Shown here: in pieces, positions 1 to 28,924 of the stretch | Numbering within the stretch: the stretch's first letter is position 1 | Layout: the number at the start of each line of letters is the position of its first letter | Source of the DNA: a virus | Taxonomy: Duplodnaviria; Caudoviricetes | Reading direction: 5' to 3' (one strand) | Length of the DNA stretch: 29,350 bases | IMG/VR virus record: IMGVR_UViG_3300020042_006920 | Span: 1 to 29,350 of that record | Position numbers and translations under genes: made by a program | The notes under the pieces: generated by a model | Told to the model about the DNA's origin: nothing | Databases searched by the model: none | What the model saw: only the letters and a program-made list of their open reading frames with translations

Positions 1-706
1 AACCTGATGAAATTGTTGAAGAAATAAGAATTCTTGATGGTAGAGTTTGACCGACTATCATATATCTACTTTGTTCTGTGCTATATGCTATTGCTCTACC
101 ATCACCATCCGACCAGAATGTATCAGTTGTAGTGTTATTTTCAGTGAAGGTGGTTCCATTTGTAGTCCAGACAACTTTTAAATTTGATGTTCCTTGTCCG
201 AACTCTTTTACCAAAGTGCATGCCCATAAATAACCTTGGTCTGCTGTGTAAGCATACATCGGTTGATAAGCCTCACCACCCCAAGTTGAACCAACTGAAA
301 AAGTATGAGCTACAACCCAAGTAGTAGAGTTAGTTGAGGTCAATATATTTTGATAAGTATTTACTATAAATAAATTAAATGAAGAACACCATTTTATACC
401 AACTGTGGTATTTGTAGTTGTTCTTGTTCGTGAGGTCCAAGTAACACCATTTGTTGAACTCATAATAGCCGCGGTTGTTGATGCAATTTCAGCCACACCT
501 ACATAAAGTCCAAGCTCAGGTGAAAAATCAACACTTGTATAACTTGATGAATTTGGAGTCGTAGCTGTAGCCCAAGTTATACCATCATTAGACCATGCTG
601 CTCTTAAATTTGTGCCAGTTTTTCTAACAGCAACCCATCGTCCATAAGTAAGACCTGGTGTTACTGGTGCTTCTGCTAATTGCCAAAATGCTACTCCTGA
701 AAACAT
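1..706 (-). CDS. BNR/Asp-box repeat (beta-propeller-like) protein, putative tail-tip/receptor-binding protein; partial, runs off the window start
   Basis: Not in the ORF track. ATG at 706-704 overlaps the TAA of the upstream fibre gene (TAATG). Hand translation MFSGVAFWQLAEAPVTPG... is open to position 1, with Asp-box-like repeats WSNDGITW, SSTNGVTW, TSTNSTTW, WTTNGTTF. Confidence 0.75.
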   Translation of the reverse strand, partial: MFSGVAFWQLAEAPVTPGLTYGRWVAVRKTGTNLRAAWSNDGITWATATTPNSSSYTSVDFSPELGLYVGVAEIASTTAAIMSSTNGVTWTSRTRTTTNTTVGIKWCSSFNLFIVNTYQNILTSTNSTTWVVAHTFSVGSTWGGEAYQPMYAYTADQGYLWACTLVKEFGQGTSNLKVVWTTNGTTFTENNTTTDTFWSDGDGRAIAYSTEQSRYMIVGQTLPSRILISSTISSG

Positions 707-3375
707 TAGAAAGATTGAAAGTTTTTTATTGACGAAACCCACATATCTGTTCCATCATAAGCCATACTCATTATAAACGAACCAGTCGCTGATATAGCAG
801 TTGCTCCAACACTTAACCAATTGGATGCGGAGTTCAAATTAAAACTATAAGTTCCTGCTTTAATAAAGAAATTATAAACACTATATGTCGCTGATGTATA
901 ACTAAAAGTAGCATTACCAGTTAGAGTATAGAAATAAGTATTTGATGCTAAACTTTGAGTAAATATCCCAGTAACAGCTGTATTTATAACTGGGTCATAT
1001 TGATAATAAAAATCAAGTCCTATACTATACGTTCCACTCTCATTTCCAAGTGATAAAGTTTGTTGTAAGTTTTGATTTGGAGATGTTCCTGATGTTCCAG
1101 CAGTTCCTGCCGAACTAACACCCCCAGACATTTCTATAAAACTAACTTGTAAATTTCTAATTAATACCTCATCTGTTCCAGTTTGCATTTGGCATGAAAC
1201 ATCAAACCAATAATCAGTAAAGGTATTTAAACCAGAAACTATACCTTGTAAATCTAAATCTTGTCTTACATTATATGACCCCGATGGTTCAATATCATCT
1301 AAAACTTTTGATGATATTATTGTTCCTGTTAATGATGAACCATTTGTTGGTGGTGTTCCAGTTCCATATCTTAATGATAATGTATATCTTGCACCGTCAG
1401 CAGTCAGTGTATCACAATCACCAGATATAATAATAAAGGTTGTTCCTGCGTTTATCATAGAGAAGGTAGCGGAAATACCAGCCATCTCACCACTTGAGCC
1501 ACCAAAAGAAGGTGGGTCTGATGGTTGAACTGATTTACTATTCATATTAGCATATCCTGCTACTGTTGATGTTCCACTTGTTCCATTTTGACCTGACGAA
1601 CCCGCGGAGCCACTTGAACCTGAACTACCTGATGAACCAGAACTACCCGATGAGCCGTTTAATCCACTTGAACCTGAACTACCACTTGAACCTGATGAAC
1701 CTGATGAACCATTTAAACCTGATGTTCCTGATGAACCACTTGTTCCAGATTGAGATATTAATGATAAAAACAATTGGTGATTATTTGAAAAGTTTGTTGT
1801 TCCTGTTCCTGCTGATGAGATTAAAGACACAGGCACTTCCCAATAATTACTCGCTCCAGCAATTAAAGTTGGAGTTGATGTAATAACCCATATTTGGTAA
1901 TTACCACTATTGCTTCTATCTTGTATTGTAATCCTTTGTCCTATATGTAAGAGTGCTAAAAATATATCTATATCTATAATCGGGGCATCTGTAAGATGAT
2001 TTATATTTATTTGAGTTGCTGATATTTGAGTTGCGTTATTCCATAGAATATGACCTGAACCAGGATTGCCTGTAATAATTGATGTCTCGGCTTCATATAA
2101 AAATATATTAGAACTTAAACCATCAATACCACTTGAACCACTTGTTCCAGTTGAACCAGAACTGCCACTTGAACCCGATGAGCCAGAACTACCTGATGAA
2201 CCATTTAAACCGCTTGAACCATTTAAACCGCTTGAACCATTTAAACCGCTTGAACCATTTATACCTGACGTTCCAGTTGAACCTGAACTACCTGATGAAC
2301 CACTTGTTCCAGTTGAACCAGAACTGCCACTTGAACCCGATGAACCTGATGAGCCAGAACTGCCACTTGAACCTGATGAACCTGATGAACCAGAACTACC
2401 TGACGAACCACTTGAACCAGAACTACCAGATGAACCTGAACTACCTGATGAACCTGATGAACCCGATGAGCCGTTTAATCCACTTGAACCTGAACTACCT
2501 GATGAACCTGATGAACCTGATGAACCATTTAATCCACTTGAACCTGACGAACCACTTGAACCTGAATTACCTGATGAACCTGATGTTCCAGTTGTTCCCG
2601 ATGAACCATTTAAACCACTTGTTCCGTTTAAACCTGATGTTCCATTTAAACCTGAACTACCTGATGAACCTGAACTACCTGATGAACCCGAATTACCTGA
2701 TGACCCACTTGAACCAGCCGAACCAGATGTTCCGTTAATACCACTCGTTCCGTTAATACCACTTGTTCCATTTTGACCTGACGAACCTGATGTTCCAGAT
2801 GAACCAGCAAATGAACCAGTAGCAGAAATAGTTGCTCCAGTATTTAAAGTAAAAATCATTTGTGTTTGAGATGGTAAAACAACACCAGATACAATATAAG
2901 GACCAGTTGGACCTATTGGACCCGTTGCTCCTGTTATACCAATTACAATTGGACCTACGTTTTGGTCGTAATAAAGATAATCATCATTTATACAATCAAT
3001 ATAAAAATCATCACAACTCGCAGTTATACTACAAGTTTCAACAACAGTCATTAAACCAATTTCTAATATACCACTCGCAGAAGCAGATGATGTATTACCA
3101 ACATATGATGTTTGATAAACTCTATAATCATAAGTTCCTGGATTAACAGTAAAATAACCATTAACACTTTGTGTAGCAGTGGTTGAATAAGTTCCTCTTT
3201 CCGAAAATGTAAATGATTGATAAACTGATTGATAAGATGAATTATCACCAGACATCATATAAGTCAAATTACCAGTATCATTTGAAGCAAATTCAAATAA
3301 ATAATAAACTGGACTTATAGTTGGATTTAAAGTAAAATAAACCTTTTTGGTTTCGGCTTTATTTATTAATATCAT
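706..3375 (-). CDS. Virion fibre protein: N-terminal structural/neck-like domain, Gly-Ser-Ser repeats, C-terminal module shared with 9594..14033
   Basis: 889 aa with long (G-S/T-S)n tracts and a short GPT/GPI collagen-like stretch; lies in the structural operon; C-terminal ~92 aa paralogous to the 1479 aa tail protein. Confidence 0.7.
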   Translation of the reverse strand: MILINKAETKKVYFTLNPTISPVYYLFEFASNDTGNLTYMMSGDNSSYQSVYQSFTFSERGTYSTTATQSVNGYFTVNPGTYDYRVYQTSYVGNTSSASASGILEIGLMTVVETCSITASCDDFYIDCINDDYLYYDQNVGPIVIGITGATGPIGPTGPYIVSGVVLPSQTQMIFTLNTGATISATGSFAGSSGTSGSSGQNGTSGINGTSGINGTSGSAGSSGSSGNSGSSGSSGSSGSSGLNGTSGLNGTSGLNGSSGTTGTSGSSGNSGSSGSSGSSGLNGSSGSSGSSGSSGSSGLNGSSGSSGSSGSSGSSGSSGSSGSSGSSGSSGSSGSSGSSGSSGSSGSSGSSGSTGTSGSSGSSGSTGTSGINGSSGLNGSSGLNGSSGLNGSSGSSGSSGSSGSSGSTGTSGSSGIDGLSSNIFLYEAETSIITGNPGSGHILWNNATQISATQININHLTDAPIIDIDIFLALLHIGQRITIQDRSNSGNYQIWVITSTPTLIAGASNYWEVPVSLISSAGTGTTNFSNNHQLFLSLISQSGTSGSSGTSGLNGSSGSSGSSGSSGSSGLNGSSGSSGSSGSSGSSGSAGSSGQNGTSGTSTVAGYANMNSKSVQPSDPPSFGGSSGEMAGISATFSMINAGTTFIIISGDCDTLTADGARYTLSLRYGTGTPPTNGSSLTGTIISSKVLDDIEPSGSYNVRQDLDLQGIVSGLNTFTDYWFDVSCQMQTGTDEVLIRNLQVSFIEMSGGVSSAGTAGTSGTSPNQNLQQTLSLGNESGTYSIGLDFYYQYDPVINTAVTGIFTQSLASNTYFYTLTGNATFSYTSATYSVYNFFIKAGTYSFNLNSASNWLSVGATAISATGSFIMSMAYDGTDMWVSSIKNFQSF
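1570..1750 (-). repeat. Coding Gly-Ser-Ser triplet repeat (second block of the fibre gene)
   Basis: Degenerate 9-nt units such as cctgatgaa, cctgaacta, ccacttgaa; boundaries approximate. Confidence 0.85.
2120..2810 (-). repeat. Coding Gly-Ser-Ser triplet repeat (main block, ~230 codons)
   Basis: Degenerate 9-nt tandem units encoding SGSSGSSG/SGLNGSSG, Gly at every third residue; boundaries approximate. Confidence 0.9.
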
Positions 3376-9582: not shown

Positions 9583-9608
9583 TAAATATATTTTTAATAA
9601 GATTGATA
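9583..9608 (-). promoter_or_regulatory. Possible degenerate late promoter upstream of the tape measure gene
   Basis: TATATTTA element at the usual ~20 nt from the ATG, but the upstream hexamer is TATCAA/TTATCA rather than AGACAA because it overlaps the upstream CDS. Confidence 0.4.
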
Positions 9609-12600
9609 ATTTCTTATTGTTGAAACCCACATATCAGTTCCATCATAAATAGCACTCATTACAAATGAACCAGTAAAACCCAGAGCGGTTGCTCCAACAG
9701 TCTGCCAGTTAGAAGCACTATTTAAACTAAAACTATAAGTTCCTGCTTTTATCATAAAGTTATATACCGATTGAGTTGCGTTTGAATAACCAAAAGTTGT
9801 ATTTCCAGTAAGAGTATAAGCATAATTGTTTGCATCTATAAGAGATTGCGTAAGAGTTCCAGTAACAGATGTATTAGTCATAACTTGTGTTGAATATACT
9901 GGAACTTTAATACCAGCATACGCAGAACCATCATAAAAACTTGCTGCTGTTAAACCACCAACTACTATACTTAATTCATTTGTAGCATTTCTGTATATTC
10001 CAGTATCAACATCATCAATAAAATGTAATCCACCTTGGAGGAGTTGTCCGTCTGGAATAGCTATACCACCTTCTTTAAAAAGTGATGCTGTTTTTCCATT
10101 TACTGCTATACCAATTCTACTTGTAGTTGGATGTTGGAATGAATGATATAAACCACTTTGGGTCCAACTTTGAAAACTATAACTTGGTTGGCTAACCGAA
10201 CCAACCTCAAGTTGTATAGTAAGTGATGAGGTATTCCCGAGTGCTAAAGTTTGTTGTAAGTTTTGAGAACTCGCAGAAGCACCATTTTTAATTAAACCTA
10301 ATGAATAAACTTGTCCTACCGAGTGAGTTGCGAAACCACCTAAAAGTGATATATCAAAACTAAACCATCCTCCGCCACCATAAGCACCATAGTTGGTTAT
10401 TTCATAAGCAGTCCAATTTTCAGTTCCTGCTTGTGATAGTTGTAAATATACTGGGTTTGAAGCATATTGACCTAACGTAGTTGTAATCCACGTTTGTATA
10501 TCTCTACCTAAATAATCATATCTATTTACATAAACTACTGATGCGGTTGTTGATGTAGCAGAATCAATTGTAAATGAACTTGTTCCAGGGTCTATACCTT
10601 GTGTTATACCACTTAAAGTAAATCTAAAAGTAGAAGGTCCATCAACACCATTTTGACCTGATGTTCCAGTTGTTCCTGACGTTCCAGTTGTTCCTGATGT
10701 TCCAGTTTGACCTGATGAACCATTTAAACCAGAAGAACCTGATGAACCACTAACTCCTGATGAGCCTGAACTACCTGAACTTCCATTTAAACCACTTGAA
10801 CCATCTTGGCCTGATGAGCCTGATGAACCTGATGAACCTGAACTTCCAGTTGTTCCTGACGTTCCACTTTGGCCTGATGAGCCTGATGAACCACTAACTC
10901 CTGATGAACCACTAACTCCTGATGAACCACTAACTCCTGAACTCCCTGATTGACCTGATGAACCGGATGAACCACTAACTCCTGATGAGCCTGAACTACC
11001 TGAACTTCCATTTAAACCACTTGAACCATCTTGGCCTGATGAACCTGAACTCCCTGATTGACCTGATGAACCGGATGAACCTGATGAACCTGAACTCCCT
11101 GATTGACCTGATGAACCTGATGAACCTGATGAACCAGATTGACCTGATGAACCTGAACTCCCTGATTGACCTGATGAACCTGATGAACCTGATGAACCTG
11201 AACTCCCTGATTGACCTGATGAACCTGATGAACCTGATGAACCAGATTGACCTGATGAACCTGACGTTCCACTACCACCACTAAACGTAATACCATTAAA
11301 AAACATATCACCAGTATTTGATACCGAAAAAGAAGGTCCGATAAAGACCATGCCACTTTGAGTAGCAGTCATATTATTAACGTTAATCATTGTAATGTTT
11401 GTATCTGTTATAGTGTTTCCACTACCACCAATTACAATTGATTTGTCTGCTTCTATAACATTATCACTACCACCAATAACCGCTGAATCATCACCAGTTA
11501 CAAAGTTTCTATCACCACTTACTATTGTATTATTTCCAGAAGCTATATTACCATCACCTATAACAGCCTGTGATTTTACTTTTATAATTCCGTCTTTTGT
11601 TACTGCAACTCCACCGACAGTATTATTTGAACCTATAACAACGCCGGTATTACCAGTATTATTTGAACCAGAAACTACCAAAAGTCCATCAACTTTTGTT
11701 GTGCTTAATCCAGGTTTTGTTCCAATAGATGATGTTAATCCTCTCTTTGGATTGTATTTAACACCTTCATTTATTTTAATTAACTCAACAGTTGTTACTT
11801 GATTATTTAATGGTTTATAATCAATAATTTTATTAACATAGTAATAACTATCCAATATAAATATCTTTGTATTGAAATTATCTTTAACATATCTTATATC
11901 ATACTCATCAAGATAAAACTTACTTGTTACTAATCTACCATCTTCAATTTGATCTACATAGTTAGACCAGTATGTGTTATACATATTTGATTGTGGTATT
12001 GACCCCCAGTCGTTATAAAAATAAAACTTACAAGTTCCGAAATTTATATCAAGTGTTGGAGATACTGGGTCATCAAAATGTCCTGCGTATGGATATGTAG
12101 TAAAACTTTCAGTTGAACCAGTAGCACCAGTTGATTGGTCTTGAAAAGTCCATTGCCATCCAGCACCATATGATTTTAATCCACCCCAATAAAGAACCCT
12201 TTGATTACCTTTTGGTTTCTCTGGGTCAATTGCTGGTAAATAAGCATTCCACGGAGTTTTAATAATTGGGGTTGGTGAGAATATACTTTCAATTTTATTC
12301 TCACCTTTAACGAAATCATTATCAAATGTAAATCTATATTGTCCGTAAATATCTCCACCGACATTATCAATATATGATTTGTTGTAAAAATCACTATCTG
12401 ATTTATAAGTAAATAACATTTGTTTAAATTGTAAATCAGATAATAACTCAATGCTGTCTTCGGATGAGTAATCTTTTTTATTAGTCCAATCTAAAACTGA
12501 ACCAGTTGAATAAAAGTCAGGTCTTGTATCAAAGATTAATTGTCTTGGATTATCCTGGTCTGTTTGAATAAATAAATTATATCTTTTTATTAAATCACTA

Positions 12601-14033
12601 ATTAAATCTCTTTGTTTTACTTTGTCTGATAAAAATTGTGATATGTCTATGACGTCTCCCTGTGATATATCAGTTGTAAAACATTTATTTTGCATTGTAT
12701 TACCACCATTATCATTTCTAAATACAATAAAACCAGTCATGCTTGGTGTAAATGCACCTCCAGTTCCAGACCAAGCAGCACCTGGATTTGTCTGCCAAGG
12801 TCTCATAGTTAATCTAACCTTATCACCTAAGTTTAAGGCCTTTTCTGCTGTGGTTACATTGATATTATAATATCTTGAGGCTGAGGCTCCAAGACCAATT
12901 GTAGATTGATTATATATTCTTGTTAAACTATCAACTTGCCAATCGGTCCATGTTGTTCCCCCATTTTTAGAAACTTGAAGCATAAAATTAACTTTGATTG
13001 TTGGATATAGGGGCTGTGAATACGGATTAGTATTCACAGCCATTGTTGTAGTTCCACTTGTATTTCTTAAGTTTAAATTGAATGATAAATTATAATTAAT
13101 TGAAAAATTACCATTTCTATCAACATCCCATAGATATAAAGCCTCATCCCAGTTATTATCATTATCATAAAAACCAGAAGCTGTTGCTGTATTTGCTAAT
13201 GGTAGTGGTAAATAATTTCCGTTATAACTTGGAAACGCACTATATGGAGCAGGATTATTTCCCGAGTTGGCATAACCCCCAAGTGATACATTTAACGTAG
13301 AGTTGGTAAGTCCAACCTTATACAACCTTCGCGTGATTTCATCTGCTGGTATTTTTGGTTTTCCATCACCAGTGTATGCTAAAATCTCTTGATTAAATTG
13401 TGTGTTTTGTTTTAATGAACCAGTCCAACCGAAGCCGGCTTGTTGAACCATAGCATCTATTATGGTTCTATAAAATGGTGCTGGGTAAAAGTATTCAATT
13501 CTATAATTATTATCTTTTGTGAATGTTCCATACATCGGATAAACATAACCATCTTCATAAGTATTATTCCAACTATCTTTAACATTTGTGTTAGAAAATG
13601 TATGTCCGTATTTAGATAAGTTAAGGTCTGCTAATGATTTCTCACCTAATTCCGACATCAAATCAACAGCGTTATTATACATAACAATTTCATATTGTAT
13701 TGTATTACCTTGATGGTCTGTATTGACTAATTTCTTAATCTTTTTTAATTGAATAAAACCATCCATTACATTTTCAGTATTAACTAATAGGACAGCACTG
13801 ACTTTTTTATTCGGATTAAACATCGTAAAATCCGCGTTTATATCAAATAGATTTCCGAACCAATAGTTATTATTTTTAGAACCAGGTAGAACCATCGTCT
13901 TTGAATAAGCAGCATTTCTTTTAGTAATGTCTTTTATATCAGCTATAGAGTATTGTAATGCTATGTCTAACTCTTGGTTTAAATCAAGTTTAGCATTTGC
14001 TGGTTCGTTTATAAATAATTCTACAAAATTCAT
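9594..14033 (-). CDS. Large tail tip/baseplate hub protein fused to fibre modules
   Basis: 1479 aa; N-terminal LDL...YSIADIKDITKRNAAYSKTMVLPG..NN typical of Bacteroidota phage tail-tip proteins; then beta-roll-like V/I-G-x-x-N repeats, a GSS tract and the C-terminal module shared with 706..3375. Confidence 0.75.
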   Translation of the reverse strand: MNFVELFINEPANAKLDLNQELDIALQYSIADIKDITKRNAAYSKTMVLPGSKNNNYWFGNLFDINADFTMFNPNKKVSAVLLVNTENVMDGFIQLKKIKKLVNTDHQGNTIQYEIVMYNNAVDLMSELGEKSLADLNLSKYGHTFSNTNVKDSWNNTYEDGYVYPMYGTFTKDNNYRIEYFYPAPFYRTIIDAMVQQAGFGWTGSLKQNTQFNQEILAYTGDGKPKIPADEITRRLYKVGLTNSTLNVSLGGYANSGNNPAPYSAFPSYNGNYLPLPLANTATASGFYDNDNNWDEALYLWDVDRNGNFSINYNLSFNLNLRNTSGTTTMAVNTNPYSQPLYPTIKVNFMLQVSKNGGTTWTDWQVDSLTRIYNQSTIGLGASASRYYNINVTTAEKALNLGDKVRLTMRPWQTNPGAAWSGTGGAFTPSMTGFIVFRNDNGGNTMQNKCFTTDISQGDVIDISQFLSDKVKQRDLISDLIKRYNLFIQTDQDNPRQLIFDTRPDFYSTGSVLDWTNKKDYSSEDSIELLSDLQFKQMLFTYKSDSDFYNKSYIDNVGGDIYGQYRFTFDNDFVKGENKIESIFSPTPIIKTPWNAYLPAIDPEKPKGNQRVLYWGGLKSYGAGWQWTFQDQSTGATGSTESFTTYPYAGHFDDPVSPTLDINFGTCKFYFYNDWGSIPQSNMYNTYWSNYVDQIEDGRLVTSKFYLDEYDIRYVKDNFNTKIFILDSYYYVNKIIDYKPLNNQVTTVELIKINEGVKYNPKRGLTSSIGTKPGLSTTKVDGLLVVSGSNNTGNTGVVIGSNNTVGGVAVTKDGIIKVKSQAVIGDGNIASGNNTIVSGDRNFVTGDDSAVIGGSDNVIEADKSIVIGGSGNTITDTNITMINVNNMTATQSGMVFIGPSFSVSNTGDMFFNGITFSGGSGTSGSSGQSGSSGSSGSSGQSGSSGSSGSSGSSGQSGSSGSSGQSGSSGSSGSSGQSGSSGSSGSSGSSGQSGSSGSSGQDGSSGLNGSSGSSGSSGVSGSSGSSGQSGSSGVSGSSGVSGSSGVSGSSGSSGQSGTSGTTGSSGSSGSSGSSGQDGSSGLNGSSGSSGSSGVSGSSGSSGLNGSSGQTGTSGTTGTSGTTGTSGQNGVDGPSTFRFTLSGITQGIDPGTSSFTIDSATSTTASVVYVNRYDYLGRDIQTWITTTLGQYASNPVYLQLSQAGTENWTAYEITNYGAYGGGGWFSFDISLLGGFATHSVGQVYSLGLIKNGASASSQNLQQTLALGNTSSLTIQLEVGSVSQPSYSFQSWTQSGLYHSFQHPTTSRIGIAVNGKTASLFKEGGIAIPDGQLLQGGLHFIDDVDTGIYRNATNELSIVVGGLTAASFYDGSAYAGIKVPVYSTQVMTNTSVTGTLTQSLIDANNYAYTLTGNTTFGYSNATQSVYNFMIKAGTYSFSLNSASNWQTVGATALGFTGSFVMSAIYDGTDMWVSTIRNYQSY
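10650..11280 (-). repeat. Coding Gly-Ser-Ser/Gly-Gln-Ser triplet repeat
   Basis: Tandem 9-nt units (cctgatgaa) with higher-order duplications, encoding SGQSGSSGSSG; boundaries approximate. Confidence 0.9.
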
Positions 14034-21171: not shown

Positions 21172-21468
21172 TTAAAAGTATTTAAAACTTACTGGGAAGC
21201 TTTGCCACAGTTGCTTATCATTAAAATAATCAGTTAATATAAGGTGGGCCTCCCATCGTTTAGCATCACCCATATTATCAAATTCTTTTATAAGATTTAC
21301 TTTTATATCTTTATTACCTTCTAATTTAATCTTTTTGTAAAGATATTTACTATCTGATTCTTTTTCTATCTCTTTAAAGTGTTGTCTTTTTCTACGATTA
21401 AAGTTATTAGTATAACCAATATACCTTCTAACCCCATCAATTAAGATTTCATAAACACAATAAATCAT
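21172..21468 (-). CDS. GIY-YIG family endonuclease
   Basis: CVY...RYIGYTNNFNRRKRQH and a conserved Glu in AKRWEAHLI. Confidence 0.8.
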   Translation of the reverse strand: MIYCVYEILIDGVRRYIGYTNNFNRRKRQHFKEIEKESDSKYLYKKIKLEGNKDIKVNLIKEFDNMGDAKRWEAHLILTDYFNDKQLWQSFPVSFKYF

Positions 21469-21689
21469 TTGTTTTTTGGAACTGATTTTAAAAGGTTATA
21501 ATGTTCTTCACTAACCATTATAAGTGTATCATTATAAGTTACAAATTTTGTTTTACCTGCTTCTATGTTTTCATTATATGTTAATAAGTCCATTACAAAC
21601 TCTCTACCATTAAGGTCTATATTAATTACTGCTGTTGGTAGTTGTTGAGACCAACCTCCTTCTTTCCATTCTAAATCATTTATACTCAT
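21465..21689 (-). CDS. Hypothetical protein
   Basis: 74 aa, translationally coupled to both neighbours. Confidence 0.6.
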   Translation of the reverse strand: MSINDLEWKEGGWSQQLPTAVINIDLNGREFVMDLLTYNENIEAGKTKFVTYNDTLIMVSEEHYNLLKSVPKNK

Positions 21690-23653
21690 TATTTAATAAA
21701 CTTTTTATATTGTTCGTAGTTCTCTATTCTTGCCTCAGCAATCTTAAAGTAATCTCCGTCCATCTCCATGCCACAAAATCTAAACCCTTCTAATTGTGCG
21801 GCTATACCAGTTGAACCAGAACCCATAAAAGGGTCAAAGACAATACCATTTGGTGGTGTTACTAATCTAACAAGATAAGCCATAAGAGCAACTGGCTTAA
21901 TAGTTGGATGTGTGTTCTTCTTTTTAGCATTTAATCTTTCTGGTTCTTCACAAACGCATTGACTATTTTTTGGTGCTAAAAATTGTTTATTACATTTACC
22001 ACATTTATCTTGTGCACCGTGTGGCATCTCTTGTTCTTCAAACTCATCTAACCCCATATTTCTTTCTTGTTTAGAAACTTTTGCTTGATAGAAAAATCTA
22101 TCGCTTTTTATATTCTCTGTGGTATTCGTTATGGTGTTCTCTATTATCGTCTCTCCACTCTTTAAGTTTTCTTCCAGAACATAACTTACAATAGGCACTA
22201 ATACCTCTTGATTTGTTTTTATAGAACTCACTAACGCATTTTGATTGCTTACAATCTGAACATTCAATATATTCTCTTCCGTCAATAAGTGTGACTGCTT
22301 TTCGTCTATCATCAGCGTGAAGTTTCCAATGGTCGTCTTTGTGTAAGCATTCAAGATTGTTAAGTTCATTATTGAGTTTGTTTTCATCTTTGTGATGGAT
22401 ATGGTGGTCATCAGGTATTGAGCCGTTGTGTTGTTCCCATACAACTCTGGCTTCTGGCATATACTTTCTCTTGCCTGTTTTAAGGCATCTGACGCTTCTA
22501 TATTCTCTTCCGTGTTGTATTCTTGTGTAGTTAAGGATTTTATATTCCATAGTATTATATTATTTTCTTTATATATAAAAAAATCCTCTGTCCCTCCACC
22601 TTTTATCTGTTGAAAATAACGACTTGCTCCACCTTTATCATTATATTCATAATTTTTGTTTCCACCACCAAATGTCTTACCACCTGGCTTACCATCTTTC
22701 TTTTTACTATAATCACTTACACCACTTTGTTCGTCCATCAAACGACAAGGACACATAGGATTAGTGTGTATATCACCTTTATCATTATAATTATCTGGTG
22801 CTGCGCCTTCTTTACTACCAAAATTACCAACTGAATTATAATCGTGTTTAGTTCTATCTCTACTACCACTTCTTTTAACTTCACCTTTTTCACCTTTAAT
22901 AACCTCATCACATAAACACTCTAATATGATGTTGGCTGGAAATCTACCTTCATTTAGTTCAGCAACCATACCGCTATTATGTCTTCCACCCTCAAACATA
23001 GTATCACTATCTTTGTTTATATCAACTTTCATAGTTCCACCTTCTGTTCCAACACGACAACCATCTATATTTATACCACCAGTTCCCCATCTTAAAACAT
23101 TCTCAGCAACTGACTTCTCACTTAGTGGCTTACGAGCAACACAGATAGGTTCATTTGCTGGTTTAAGAGCAGTTCCCCAACCTTCCCACTCAGAGTTTCC
23201 TTTTGTTATATCTGGGTGTGTTGTTCTTCCATTTTGTGAGGCACCAGCACTTCTTCTCTCAGCCTCATCACTTGCTTTATATGGGCTTTCGCATACCCAC
23301 TCTCTTTCATTACCTTGTAATTTATCAACTGCCTTTCCTATGTTATGACTTTTAGGAAATCCACTTCCATATAACCACATAATTTGGTCTCTAATCTCAA
23401 AACCAGCATCTTCTATATTCACAACCATTCTGTGATATGTTCTTGTGCCACCAAAACTGAGAACGTGGCCTCCTGGTTTTAGAACTCTAAGGACTTCTTT
23501 CCAGAACTCAACAGATGGAACATCATAATCCCACTTCTTACCCATAAAAGATAAACCGTAAGGTGGGTCTGTTACGATTGAATCAATTGAATTGTCTGGT
23601 AGTTTTTGTAGTGATTTGATGTTGTCTCCCAACATTAGTTTAGTTTTTTTCAT
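21689..23653 (-). CDS. DNA methyltransferase, N6-A/N4-C beta class, carrying a 174-codon in-frame insertion
   Basis: TDPPY catalytic motif, RVLKPGG, YGSGFPKS, GRFPAN, HPTIKP and the DPFMGSGSTG SAM-binding motif. Confidence 0.9.
   Translation of the reverse strand: MKKTKLMLGDNIKSLQKLPDNSIDSIVTDPPYGLSFMGKKWDYDVPSVEFWKEVLRVLKPGGHVLSFGGTRTYHRMVVNIEDAGFEIRDQIMWLYGSGFPKSHNIGKAVDKLQGNEREWVCESPYKASDEAERRSAGASQNGRTTHPDITKGNSEWEGWGTALKPANEPICVARKPLSEKSVAENVLRWGTGGINIDGCRVGTEGGTMKVDINKDSDTMFEGGRHNSGMVAELNEGRFPANIILECLCDEVIKGEKGEVKRSGSRDRTKHDYNSVGNFGSKEGAAPDNYNDKGDIHTNPMCPCRLMDEQSGVSDYSKKKDGKPGGKTFGGGNKNYEYNDKGGASRYFQQIKGGGTEDFFIYKENNIILWNIKSLTTQEYNTEENIEASDALKQARESICQKPELYGNNTTAQYLMTTISITKMKTNSIMNLTILNAYTKTTIGNFTLMIDEKQSHLLTEENILNVQIVSNQNALVSSIKTNQEVLVPIVSYVLEENLKSGETIIENTITNTTENIKSDRFFYQAKVSKQERNMGLDEFEEQEMPHGAQDKCGKCNKQFLAPKNSQCVCEEPERLNAKKKNTHPTIKPVALMAYLVRLVTPPNGIVFDPFMGSGSTGIAAQLEGFRFCGMEMDGDYFKIAEARIENYEQYKKFIK
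22098..22550 (-). CDS. HNH endonuclease (HNH_3-like) with a C-terminal CxxC...CxxC zinc finger, nested in another frame of the methyltransferase gene
   Basis: RVVWEQHNGSIP..HHIHHKDENKLNN.L.NLECL....H...H; CSDC...YCKLC; has its own ATG, stop and upstream promoter-like motif. Confidence 0.9.
   Translation of the reverse strand: MEYKILNYTRIQHGREYRSVRCLKTGKRKYMPEARVVWEQHNGSIPDDHHIHHKDENKLNNELNNLECLHKDDHWKLHADDRRKAVTLIDGREYIECSDCKQSKCVSEFYKNKSRGISAYCKLCSGRKLKEWRDDNREHHNEYHREYKKR
22100..22621 (-). mobile_element. Putative splicing-independent homing-endonuclease insertion (522 nt)
   Basis: Separates GGAS from RFFYQAK of the methyltransferase; length is a multiple of 3; contains only a promoter-like motif plus the HNH ORF. 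Confidence 0.6.
22569..22594 (-). promoter_or_regulatory. Internal promoter-like motif for the nested HNH gene
   Basis: GGGACAGAGGATTTTTTTATATATAA, 21/26 identical without gaps to the motif at 23675..23700. Confidence 0.65.
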
Positions 23654-27737: not shown

Positions 27738-28924
27738 TTCAATACATTTTCTTTTATTATAGAAGCGGTCTTACCAACCTCTTTTACATATGGTGGAACA
27801 CCTGGTAATTCAAGACCTAATTGTTGTGTCGGTGCTTCAACAGTCGCAAAATCAATTTCATACTTATTAAATTCAATTGGTTCTGAAACACCAGCATAGA
27901 AACTTAATTTATTTAATTGCTTTTGTAAAATCCTTTGTCTGTTATTAATATACGTTGATTGAAAGATAGCTAAGTTTTGTAATAACTGGTCTTTACCGCC
28001 CAACTCACCAGCAACTCTAACACCAAATAACTGTGGGTCTGTAACTGAATGACCGATAAAAACTTCCTCCATCATTTCTTTATGTAATAATAAAAATCTT
28101 TCATCACTATCATTTAAATTAATTGGTATAAGTTCTGGTTTTTGGTCTGCTCCTTCTGAAAAAGTAAGTATAAACTTACCAGCGTTTTCCGAACCAGTAT
28201 ATTTTCTTTCAAACTCTTTGTAAGCAGATTCCATTTCCTCCATAGTTGGAATACCAGTTGCGAAATTTAAGATAAATCCAGGCATAAAACCATTTCTTAC
28301 TGATGATAAGTGGAAATTACCAACCTCATAATCTAACTCAATCCACGTTAAAGTAGATGAATAATAAGGTAAAGGATAATACTCAACACCATTTGTTTCT
28401 AAAACAAAATAAAATATCTGTGTTGGAAATTCTTTTGCTTTTAAAGGGTCAAACCTACAATACTCAACTGGTTTATTTTCAGTTCTTCTAAAATTCTCCC
28501 AGTCCTTACTTACAAGAATAGTTCTCTCATCAGGTGATAATCTACATTTATGATAAGGCATCCAGTCAAGAGCAGCAATTCTTGTTCCGTCTAAATTCCA
28601 TTTTACAAGTAAAGCAAAACCATTCATAATTTCAAAATCAAAGTCAATATGGATTAAGATTTCCTCTAAATCTTTTGTTCCCCAAGCGTTTTTAATAAAC
28701 TTTTGTAGTTCTGGTGTTGTTGGAGTTTTAATTCCATTACCAACAGTCATATCAACTTTTCTGTTAATAATTGCTTTATGCTTGTTGCTTCTGTGATGGA
28801 AAACATCTAATAGATATTGAGGATATAAATTATCACTACCATAATCTATCCAATTACCATTTCTATTTTCTTTAAAAGTTGGCAAAACCTGTCCTTTTGC
28901 GAAATTGAGTATCTTAAATTGCAT
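27734..28924 (-). CDS. Portal protein
   Basis: 396 aa; W..YG.DNLYPQYL, H.AIIN.K, YYPLPYY, NGF.P, TGSENAGKFILTF, H.VT.P.LFGV motifs. Confidence 0.85.
   Translation of the reverse strand: MQFKILNFAKGQVLPTFKENRNGNWIDYGSDNLYPQYLLDVFHHRSNKHKAIINRKVDMTVGNGIKTPTTPELQKFIKNAWGTKDLEEILIHIDFDFEIMNGFALLVKWNLDGTRIAALDWMPYHKCRLSPDERTILVSKDWENFRRTENKPVEYCRFDPLKAKEFPTQIFYFVLETNGVEYYPLPYYSSTLTWIELDYEVGNFHLSSVRNGFMPGFILNFATGIPTMEEMESAYKEFERKYTGSENAGKFILTFSEGADQKPELIPINLNDSDERFLLLHKEMMEEVFIGHSVTDPQLFGVRVAGELGGKDQLLQNLAIFQSTYINNRQRILQKQLNKLSFYAGVSEPIEFNKYEIDFATVEAPTQQLGLELPGVPPYVKEVGKTASIIKENVLK

Follow-up and report, generated by a model that had tools for sequence, protein, structure and literature searches.

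A gene for an HNH endonuclease is concealed within the DNA methyltransferase gene of a phage, and both reading frames are open. The two genes lie in IMG/VR record IMGVR_UViG_3300020042_006920, a 29,350-nucleotide (nt) virus record in which portal, terminase and tail genes are present. This whole stretch of DNA is referred to below as the window, and all of the window features described are on its minus strand. The methyltransferase gene (21689..23653) specifies 654 amino acids. The HNH gene (22098..22550; 150 amino acids) starts 1103 nt into this open reading frame (ORF), in frame +2 with respect to the methyltransferase. It accounts for 453 of the 522 nt of a mobile insert (22100..22621) that is missing from empty alleles. 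In the methyltransferase frame, hereafter the host frame, the insert is read as 174 codons (residues 345-518) between GGAS and RFFYQAK. The analysis confirms that the nested layout is real, exceeds chance and is no assembly artefact. That the HNH gene is an overprinted element of the homing type is well supported, and its tolerance without splicing appears likely. We propose, with a probability of about 0.72, that the out-of-frame HNH gene is a homing element that is never spliced out, and that the enzyme carries the 174-residue by-product as a loose loop.

The open host frame was compared with chance expectation by holding the HNH protein fixed and applying the codon usage of 21 other window genes. 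A host frame without stops has an exact probability of 1.05e-6, and the mean is 7.7 stops. None of 200,000 recodings of the HNH gene was free of host-frame stops. Similarly, none of 463 windows of 150 codons, taken from the 21 other genes, was open in the corresponding frame. The third frame over the HNH gene contains 27 stops. All 14 of the at-risk leucine, isoleucine and valine codons (i.e. those before a purine) end in T or C. The notion that the open frame reflects chance, or faulty assembly, can draw on two observations. First, the host's phase has 14 codon pairs at risk, versus 62 in the other phase. It is thus cheaper to keep open, which is likely why that phase dominates. Second, the odds of an open host frame are 0.01-0.015 for GC-rich relatives of the element. 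Conversely, the odds are 2.6e-7 for locus L080 and 1e-4 for locus L152, and many independent contigs carry the insert in frame. With the value of 1e-6 obtained here, chance and artefact are refuted for the window, and we give this explanation almost no credence.

Loci L080, L146 and L148 represent one independent DNA lineage of the same element (HNH identity 81%) and served for a test of selection. The window and L080 differ at 56 of 453 nt. For the HNH frame, the ratio of nonsynonymous to synonymous change (dN/dS) is 0.34, with a Fisher p of 0.0006; for the host frame, the ratio is 0.63, with p 0.21. In simulations, the same substitutions were placed at random with stops avoided in both frames. 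The HNH frame has 29 changes compared to 38.9 +/- 2.8 simulated, and 0 of 2000 runs were as low. For the host frame, 35 changes were observed and 37.5 +/- 2.9 simulated (p 0.24). The HNH frame is under purifying selection; in this one pair of copies, the host-frame peptide has no detectable constraint beyond staying open. A prior sequence-only reading of the window had predicted that the HNH frame would be under purifying selection and that the other would only avoid stops, and the comparison with L080 agrees with both parts.

The ends of the insert resemble one another. Host sequence resumes with RFFYQAK (22079..22099; residues 519-525), in which R519, Y522 and K525 are invariant in 63 sequences. 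The insert begins with a look-alike of this sequence, RYFQQIK (22601..22621). The two are identical at 15 of 27 nt in the window and 20 of 27 nt in L080, where the insert ends contain a 14-nt perfect repeat. Because the RFFYxxK motif stands at both ends, the insert boundary can slide by a few codons. The HNH stop codon TAG (22098..22100) consists of the last base of the insert (T of GAT) and the AG of the host Arg519 codon, AGA. The same straddle is found in L080, L146, L149, L152 and L154.

We next consider signatures of splicing. No Hint or intein family was found on the methyltransferase protein, where the insert starts RYF and ends KSD; the same family scan detects Hint or intein families in 47 of the 56 nested relatives listed. 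There is no Cys or Ser start paired with a His-Asn end. With respect to group I introns, a search up to E 5 matched no Rfam intron family, the last base of the insert is T rather than G, and no slide within the insert-end repeat gives a U/G pair of ends. With respect to group II introns, the insert starts CGTTA rather than GUGYG, there was no Rfam match, and no reverse transcriptase ORF is present. The fold of the insert RNA is not unusual (z -1.58). One weak Rfam match, to a small RNA (E 0.43), was treated as chance. Reads of runs X1-X4 contained no joint across the insert. Run X8 produced two joints skipping ~620 nt, with unknown letters between, and these were not used. Run X19, probably DNA, gave one 147-nt piece over 22481-22627 with no joint, and this was not used as evidence either. 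The sequence-only reading had rightly described a 150-residue HNH and zinc-finger ORF, on the same strand as the 654-residue methyltransferase but in another frame. Its 522-nt block between GGAS and RFFYQAK, with the RYF start and the TAG across GAT AGA, was borne out, as was the lack of intein termini and of an intron core.

It is conceivable that the insert is removed by an unrecognised route, such as an atypical intron, ribosome bypassing between the look-alike ends or excision at the protein level. The look-alike ends, including the 14-nt repeat of L080, could act as take-off and landing sites or as a guide. We regard such removal as improbable. Removal at the RNA level has no need of 174 open codons, the HNH coding sequence occupies most of the insert, and the searches above found neither an intron match, U/G ends, a Hint domain nor intein termini. 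We infer the absence of splicing because the host frame is open under selection. Hence, the insert likely stays unspliced and would be carried by the enzyme as a loop.

The distribution of the insert is patchy. The element is absent from all 79 methyltransferase-first loci, most of which have GGASRFFY or a variant of it, so the empty alleles that had been predicted do exist. A search with the insert region recovered 11 near-length proteins, including the query, with the insert in frame at 65-100% identity. The inserts of P0003, P0004 and P0005 are 100%, 99.4% and 98.9% identical to that of the window, whereas their N-flanks are 62-67% and their C-flanks 69-72% identical. The nearest exteins of the window protein are those of empty alleles (72.5% and 72.1%). 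In a 22-row tree, from which the insert and variable region were removed and 41 more distant rows omitted, 8 carriers require 7 changes. The approximately unbiased (AU) test rejected a single clade of the 8 carriers (p 0.0036) and also one uniting the trio of identical-insert carriers (p 0.046). One contig of run X8 (X8-17) spans 22034-22640 with 2 listed differences over the insert; it departs from the window 19 nt upstream and ~65 nt downstream of the insert. In run X6, a piece of the insert and the empty junction are both present. The best-matching data sets are freshwater metagenomes. The pattern is as expected of recent homing with short shared flanks, the cutting itself being predicted, and the HNH gene likely spreads as a selfish homing element. 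As a separate observation, the empty allele of L010 reads GGA GCA AGT CGC TAT TTT (GGASRYFY), which is near the element's 5' end. This allele may resemble the target, or may have arisen by loss between the two look-alike ends.

Alternatively, methylase and nuclease may form a domesticated module, similar to restriction-modification, or the insert may be a passenger of ordinary recombination rather than homing. The two enzymes are encoded in one gene, and these phage methylases are mosaic according to the available part of PMC9957025. However, the insert is near-identical in divergent hosts, patchy and bordered by short shared flanks, and it is absent from every methyltransferase-first locus. 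Close relatives of the HNH are free-standing (L151) or within inteins. We consider a module or passenger quite improbable, slightly more so than removal of the insert.

The preferred explanation, homing without splicing, can be set out in steps. The starting point would be an HNH gene that stood free and had upstream signals of its own; it would have inserted just 5' of the invariant Arg of RFFYxxK. The insertion would have left RFFYxxK at both ends, with the Arg codon borrowed for the HNH stop. The HNH would be made from its own ATG, probably by its own promoter, and not by frameshifting. In mixed infections, the HNH would nick empty alleles near GGAS-RFFY, in the manner of I-HmuI-type enzymes, and repair would then copy the insert with short flanks into the nicked allele. 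Full-length methyltransferase would be translated through the insert and still be useful. Because the enzyme would stay useful, stop codons in its frame would be purged.

The methyltransferase matches Pfam N6_N4_Mtase (E 4e-32) and PHROG 67. Its motif order (DPPY, variable region, FxGxG) is the beta-class amino DNA methyltransferase arrangement; the beta-class name for these enzymes follows from motif order. Relatives in the PDB are CcrM, M1.HpyAVI, M.RsrI and M.PvuII, all beta-class enzymes. The DPPY catalytic motif (23558..23569; residues 29-32) is 5' of the insert, and D29, P31 and Y32 are invariant in 63 aligned sequences. The cofactor-binding motif DPFMGSGS (21812..21835; residues 607-614), which aligns with CcrM and M1.HpyAVI, is 3' of the insert and is reached only by reading through it. 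A structure model is confident in the core and at residues 519-535, and the predicted local distance difference test score (pLDDT) is 79-92 over residues 521-540. Most of the insert scores below 50, and so does much of the native variable region. An insert carried as a loop is compatible with this model, enzyme activity being a prediction.

Several observations weigh against a tolerated loop that spreads by homing. The insertion site adjoins invariant residues and is no obviously harmless place, and the structure model is of low confidence over the whole variable region (predicted template-modelling score, pTM, 0.53). For the selection test, a single independent pair of DNA copies with 56 differences was available, and no more than 4 of the 19 inner branches of the tree are strongly supported. 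Among 17 carrier protein clusters (the 11 near-length and 6 from a further search), 2 are broken inside the insert: P0018 ends ~33 residues into it and P0028/P0015 is split at a T run. Four other clusters start inside the insert; one of these has a read-through cluster-mate, P0029, and three are on contigs of 1-2.2 kb. In the lineage of P0011 and P0023-P0028, the methyltransferase is frameshifted on four contigs, each at a different place, possibly through read errors or decay. Of 12 carriers, 5 have a changed 3' RFFY, whereas 50 of 55 empty rows have RFFY or RYFY. The 5' copy, R[YF]FF, is kept in 4 of those 5 carriers, a hint that either copy may serve. Finally, at another site, a nuclease splits the gene in L015.

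Some of these points would suit an element that homes but cripples the methyltransferase, with the frame open only to avoid polarity or for coupling of translation to the next gene. The frameshifted lineage and the altered 3' RFFY are in keeping with this, as is the overlap of the methyltransferase stop with the ATG of the next gene at 21689. Phage methylases of this sort are also dispensable (PMC11855218). Against a crippled enzyme, the catalytic and cofactor motifs are intact in aligned full-length carriers, and the DGPY or DAPY variants occur in empty alleles too. Moreover, the frame is still open in carriers over 65-100% insert identity. We judge a crippled enzyme to be unlikely, though it is the most plausible of the alternatives to a tolerated loop.

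The nested protein has the features of a homing endonuclease. HNH_3 was matched at residues 35-74 (E 5e-13). The C-terminus has a four-cysteine zinc finger (22179..22262; C97, C100, C121 and C124). All four cysteines are invariant in 11 aligned relatives and presumably bind zinc. The structure model is confident (pLDDT 87.7). As in I-HmuI-type homing endonucleases, the predicted structure has an N-terminal sheet and the HNH fold. I-HmuI (PDB 1u3e) was the top Foldseek match, albeit a weak one (E 0.16). Residues 1-83 superpose on I-HmuI with Z 8.1 and a root-mean-square deviation of 2.8 over 81 aligned residues (21% identity). A PDB sequence search with the HNH gave weak, unrelated rows only, and there was no match in the annotated phage collection at 1e-5. 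In the genome collection, no close copy of the element was found, only distant HNHs. A profile search yielded 48,551 proteins; these came without context, and we made no further use of them.

The insert also appears equipped for expression of the nuclease. A leader of 71 nt separates the insert start from the HNH ATG and is conserved in L080, L146 and L148. The translation start region (22551..22585) is A-rich, with no Shine-Dalgarno sequence and with A at -3. Its 35 nt score like real starts (profile score 5.9), and only 1 of 501 other internal ATGs scored higher. Starts without a Shine-Dalgarno sequence and with A at -3 are described for Flavobacterium in the available part of PMC6847099. 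A promoter-like AT motif (22568..22583), 17 nt before the HNH ATG, also precedes five other genes of this phage, including the methyltransferase gene. It was picked by eye after the leader had been seen, and 6 of its 8 minus-strand matches are 6-22 nt before a gene start. The motif may be the HNH gene's own promoter. A sigma-70 scan gave 6 sites versus 7.5 expected, none just 5' of the HNH gene, and no terminators were found in the same scan. In terms of local RNA openness, the HNH ATG reaches only the top 9% of windows across the gene. The HNH frame is open for 153 codons only. An in-frame TAA (22560-22562), three codons before the ATG, rules out a methyltransferase-HNH fusion made by earlier frameshifting.

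Related elements occur at the same RFFY site. L149, L152 and L154 (HNH identity 45%, 51% and 40%) have an open host frame, a 5' look-alike and a TAG straddling the Arg codon. The free-standing relative in L151 is 46% identical. Searches at the protein level are biased towards open frames by design. HNH-first DNA scans lack this bias, and every RFFY-site locus that they recovered is open over the HNH. L150 was left out of this family because its methyltransferase is rearranged. There (L150:131-2077), a GRFPAN-GGASRYF piece precedes the N-terminus and an HNH replaces everything between ARKP and SSRFFY; the arrangement may be an assembly artefact. The sequence-only reading had also anticipated alleles with other nested endonucleases, and these occur at and near the site. 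A different, cysteine-rich nuclease is nested at about the same RFFY site in L026:1095-2861. Methyltransferases of this family also carry a second family of nested HNHs, for which the usual position is between ERNxGL and HPTxKP, with the host frame open (L083:2932-3342, L042:3906-4331, L269:2360-2812, L275:2375-2845, L289:2411-2848 and L271:2489-2923). The nested nucleases of L083, L042, L269, L275 and L289 are just 5' of HPTxKP. L269 has two nested HNH genes (1342-1863 and 2360-2812), in different frames of one methyltransferase, and the host frame is open. Further upstream, a site that follows GRFPAN carries an HNH nested in the other phase in L068:2514-4412; in L015:2989-4907 the gene is split there by an HNH, and in L069:2983-4511 it is split with no nuclease ORF. 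The three are possibly stages of one element's life. In L080:4520-4837 and L082:1475-1792, a short ORF has a terminase-like N-terminus followed by a copy of the C-terminus of the methyltransferase.

In a wider survey, most of the HNH relatives that are nested occupy inteins out of frame, nearly always in the same phase, and many of these inteins are in terminase large subunits (L092-L095, L103-L105, L156-L225, L270-L345 and others). The survey scans are biased by pattern, and the counts that follow are not natural frequencies. Among the matches listed, 107 clusters of HNH relatives included at least 56 nested with the host in +1 and 0 in the other phase; the remainder were free (45), in-frame domains (5) or at an edge (1). 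The hosts of the 56 listed comprised 47 with Hint or intein family matches (many below the curated cut-off), 5 methyltransferases and 4 with no match. With more loci, the 235 clusters listed comprised 100 nested in +1, 4 in +2, 8 in frame and 123 others, and about four of the nested calls look spurious. The 100 of 235 listed clusters that are nested in a long host frame suggest that the layout is common. A bolder generalisation, which we hold only tentatively and would not back at even odds, is that HNH homing endonucleases have a third general way of life, overprinting in a single fixed phase, which is no mycobacteriophage oddity. One superfamily, with the host in +1, would use it both in inteins and, unspliced, in at least 4 sites of one phage methylase family. 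At the RFFY site, the cassette would bring its own promoter, duplicate RFFYxxK so that either copy completes the fold, and borrow the invariant Arg codon as a stop. The enzyme would keep full activity, its 174-residue loop being neutral.

The remaining features concern the phage. It is an AT-rich, freshwater phage, probably of Bacteroidota. The only annotated relatives of its portal protein belong to Nonlabens and Bacteroides phages (22-26% identity; 5 records), and its capsid candidate had no match in the annotated phage collection. A stand-alone GIY-YIG gene (98 amino acids; 21172-21468) is two genes downstream of the methyltransferase. Two long tail proteins with collagen repeats are encoded at 706-3375 and 9594-14033. 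The sequence TATATTTA occurs 18-27 nt 5' of the gene starts at 28924, 18359, 15508, 9563 and 5833, which account for 5 of its 8 minus-strand matches. In two cases, AAAGACAAA is ~40 nt upstream; the arrangement is a candidate late promoter.

The interpretation given in the sequence-only reading is supported, the tolerated loop itself being a prediction. That reading had also taken the arrangement to be new. This premise is not supported, since the same layout and the same explanation were published in 2025 for the ShiLan domain, a hidden HNH in a phage methylase (PMC11855218). New here are a different insertion site in this enzyme family, an HNH that looks unrelated, a family with its stop straddling an invariant Arg codon, and selection computed per frame. 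We found no published account of the GGAS/RFFY site or of per-frame selection in a search that covered few subscription journals, and the supplements of PMC11855218 and its authors' repository may list more. In the main text of that paper, the published kind is known only from actinobacteriophages, and neither the selected frame nor expression of the hidden gene is tested. The window member adds the per-frame calculation and a leader resembling the phage's own gene starts. Being compact (522 nt) and having matched empty alleles, it is a convenient test of splicing-free homing. The arrangement is also a warning for annotation: the longer frame is called, the nested nuclease is missed and the by-product is mistaken for a methylase domain.

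The likeness to ShiLan is extensive. The methylases are of the same family (46-48% identity), the HNH is in the third frame (+2), the host frame is free of stops, and there is no intron or intein signature. In both cases, the 5' end resembles downstream host residues, near-identical copies are spread patchily, the insert is less divergent than its hosts, relatives have empty alleles, and a tolerated loop is the model. Conversely, the ShiLan site is GWGTALKP/A, which corresponds to P165/A166 of the window protein and is empty there. The window insert is at GGAS/RFFY (S344/R519), 179 residues further. The HNHs are 24% identical over 79 residues, and that of the window resembles I-HmuI at its N-terminus and has a single zinc finger at its C-terminus in place of flanking fingers. 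Its ATG follows a 71-nt AT-rich leader, whereas ShiLan has a GTG 18 nt in, with leaderless initiation proposed. ShiLan is found in Mycobacterium phages and the window element in an AT-rich freshwater phage, probably of Bacteroidota.

Out-of-frame nucleases are also nested in the phage methylases Pacc40 gp60 (PMC11855218) and, in the available part of PMC12613952, Applejack gp54/gp55. Pacc40, like the window element, has free-standing relatives (here L151). The Pacc40 methylase is different and poorly alignable according to PMC11855218; we set Pacc40 and Applejack apart by description only. The overprinting phase is shared with inteins that have an out-of-frame, frame-3 endonuclease, as described in the accessible portion of bioRxiv 10.1101/2025.01.02.630785. 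There, the by-product is spliced out and the enzyme is endonuclease VII-like, whereas the window insert has no splicing domain. The fold of residues 1-83 is shared with I-HmuI (PDB 1u3e), an intron-encoded nicking HNH homing endonuclease. The window HNH, the activity of which is predicted, is outside any group I intron, and has a C-terminal zinc finger and helix in place of the I-HmuI distal domain. I-HmuI and Mob enzymes nick one strand, according to the part of PMC2988022 available. The same text describes mobE of phage Aeh1, in nrdA, and mobA of T4, in gene 60, which like the window element are HNH genes inserted into coding sequence without splicing. As described there, mobE and mobA split the host gene; in the window, the host frame is continuous.

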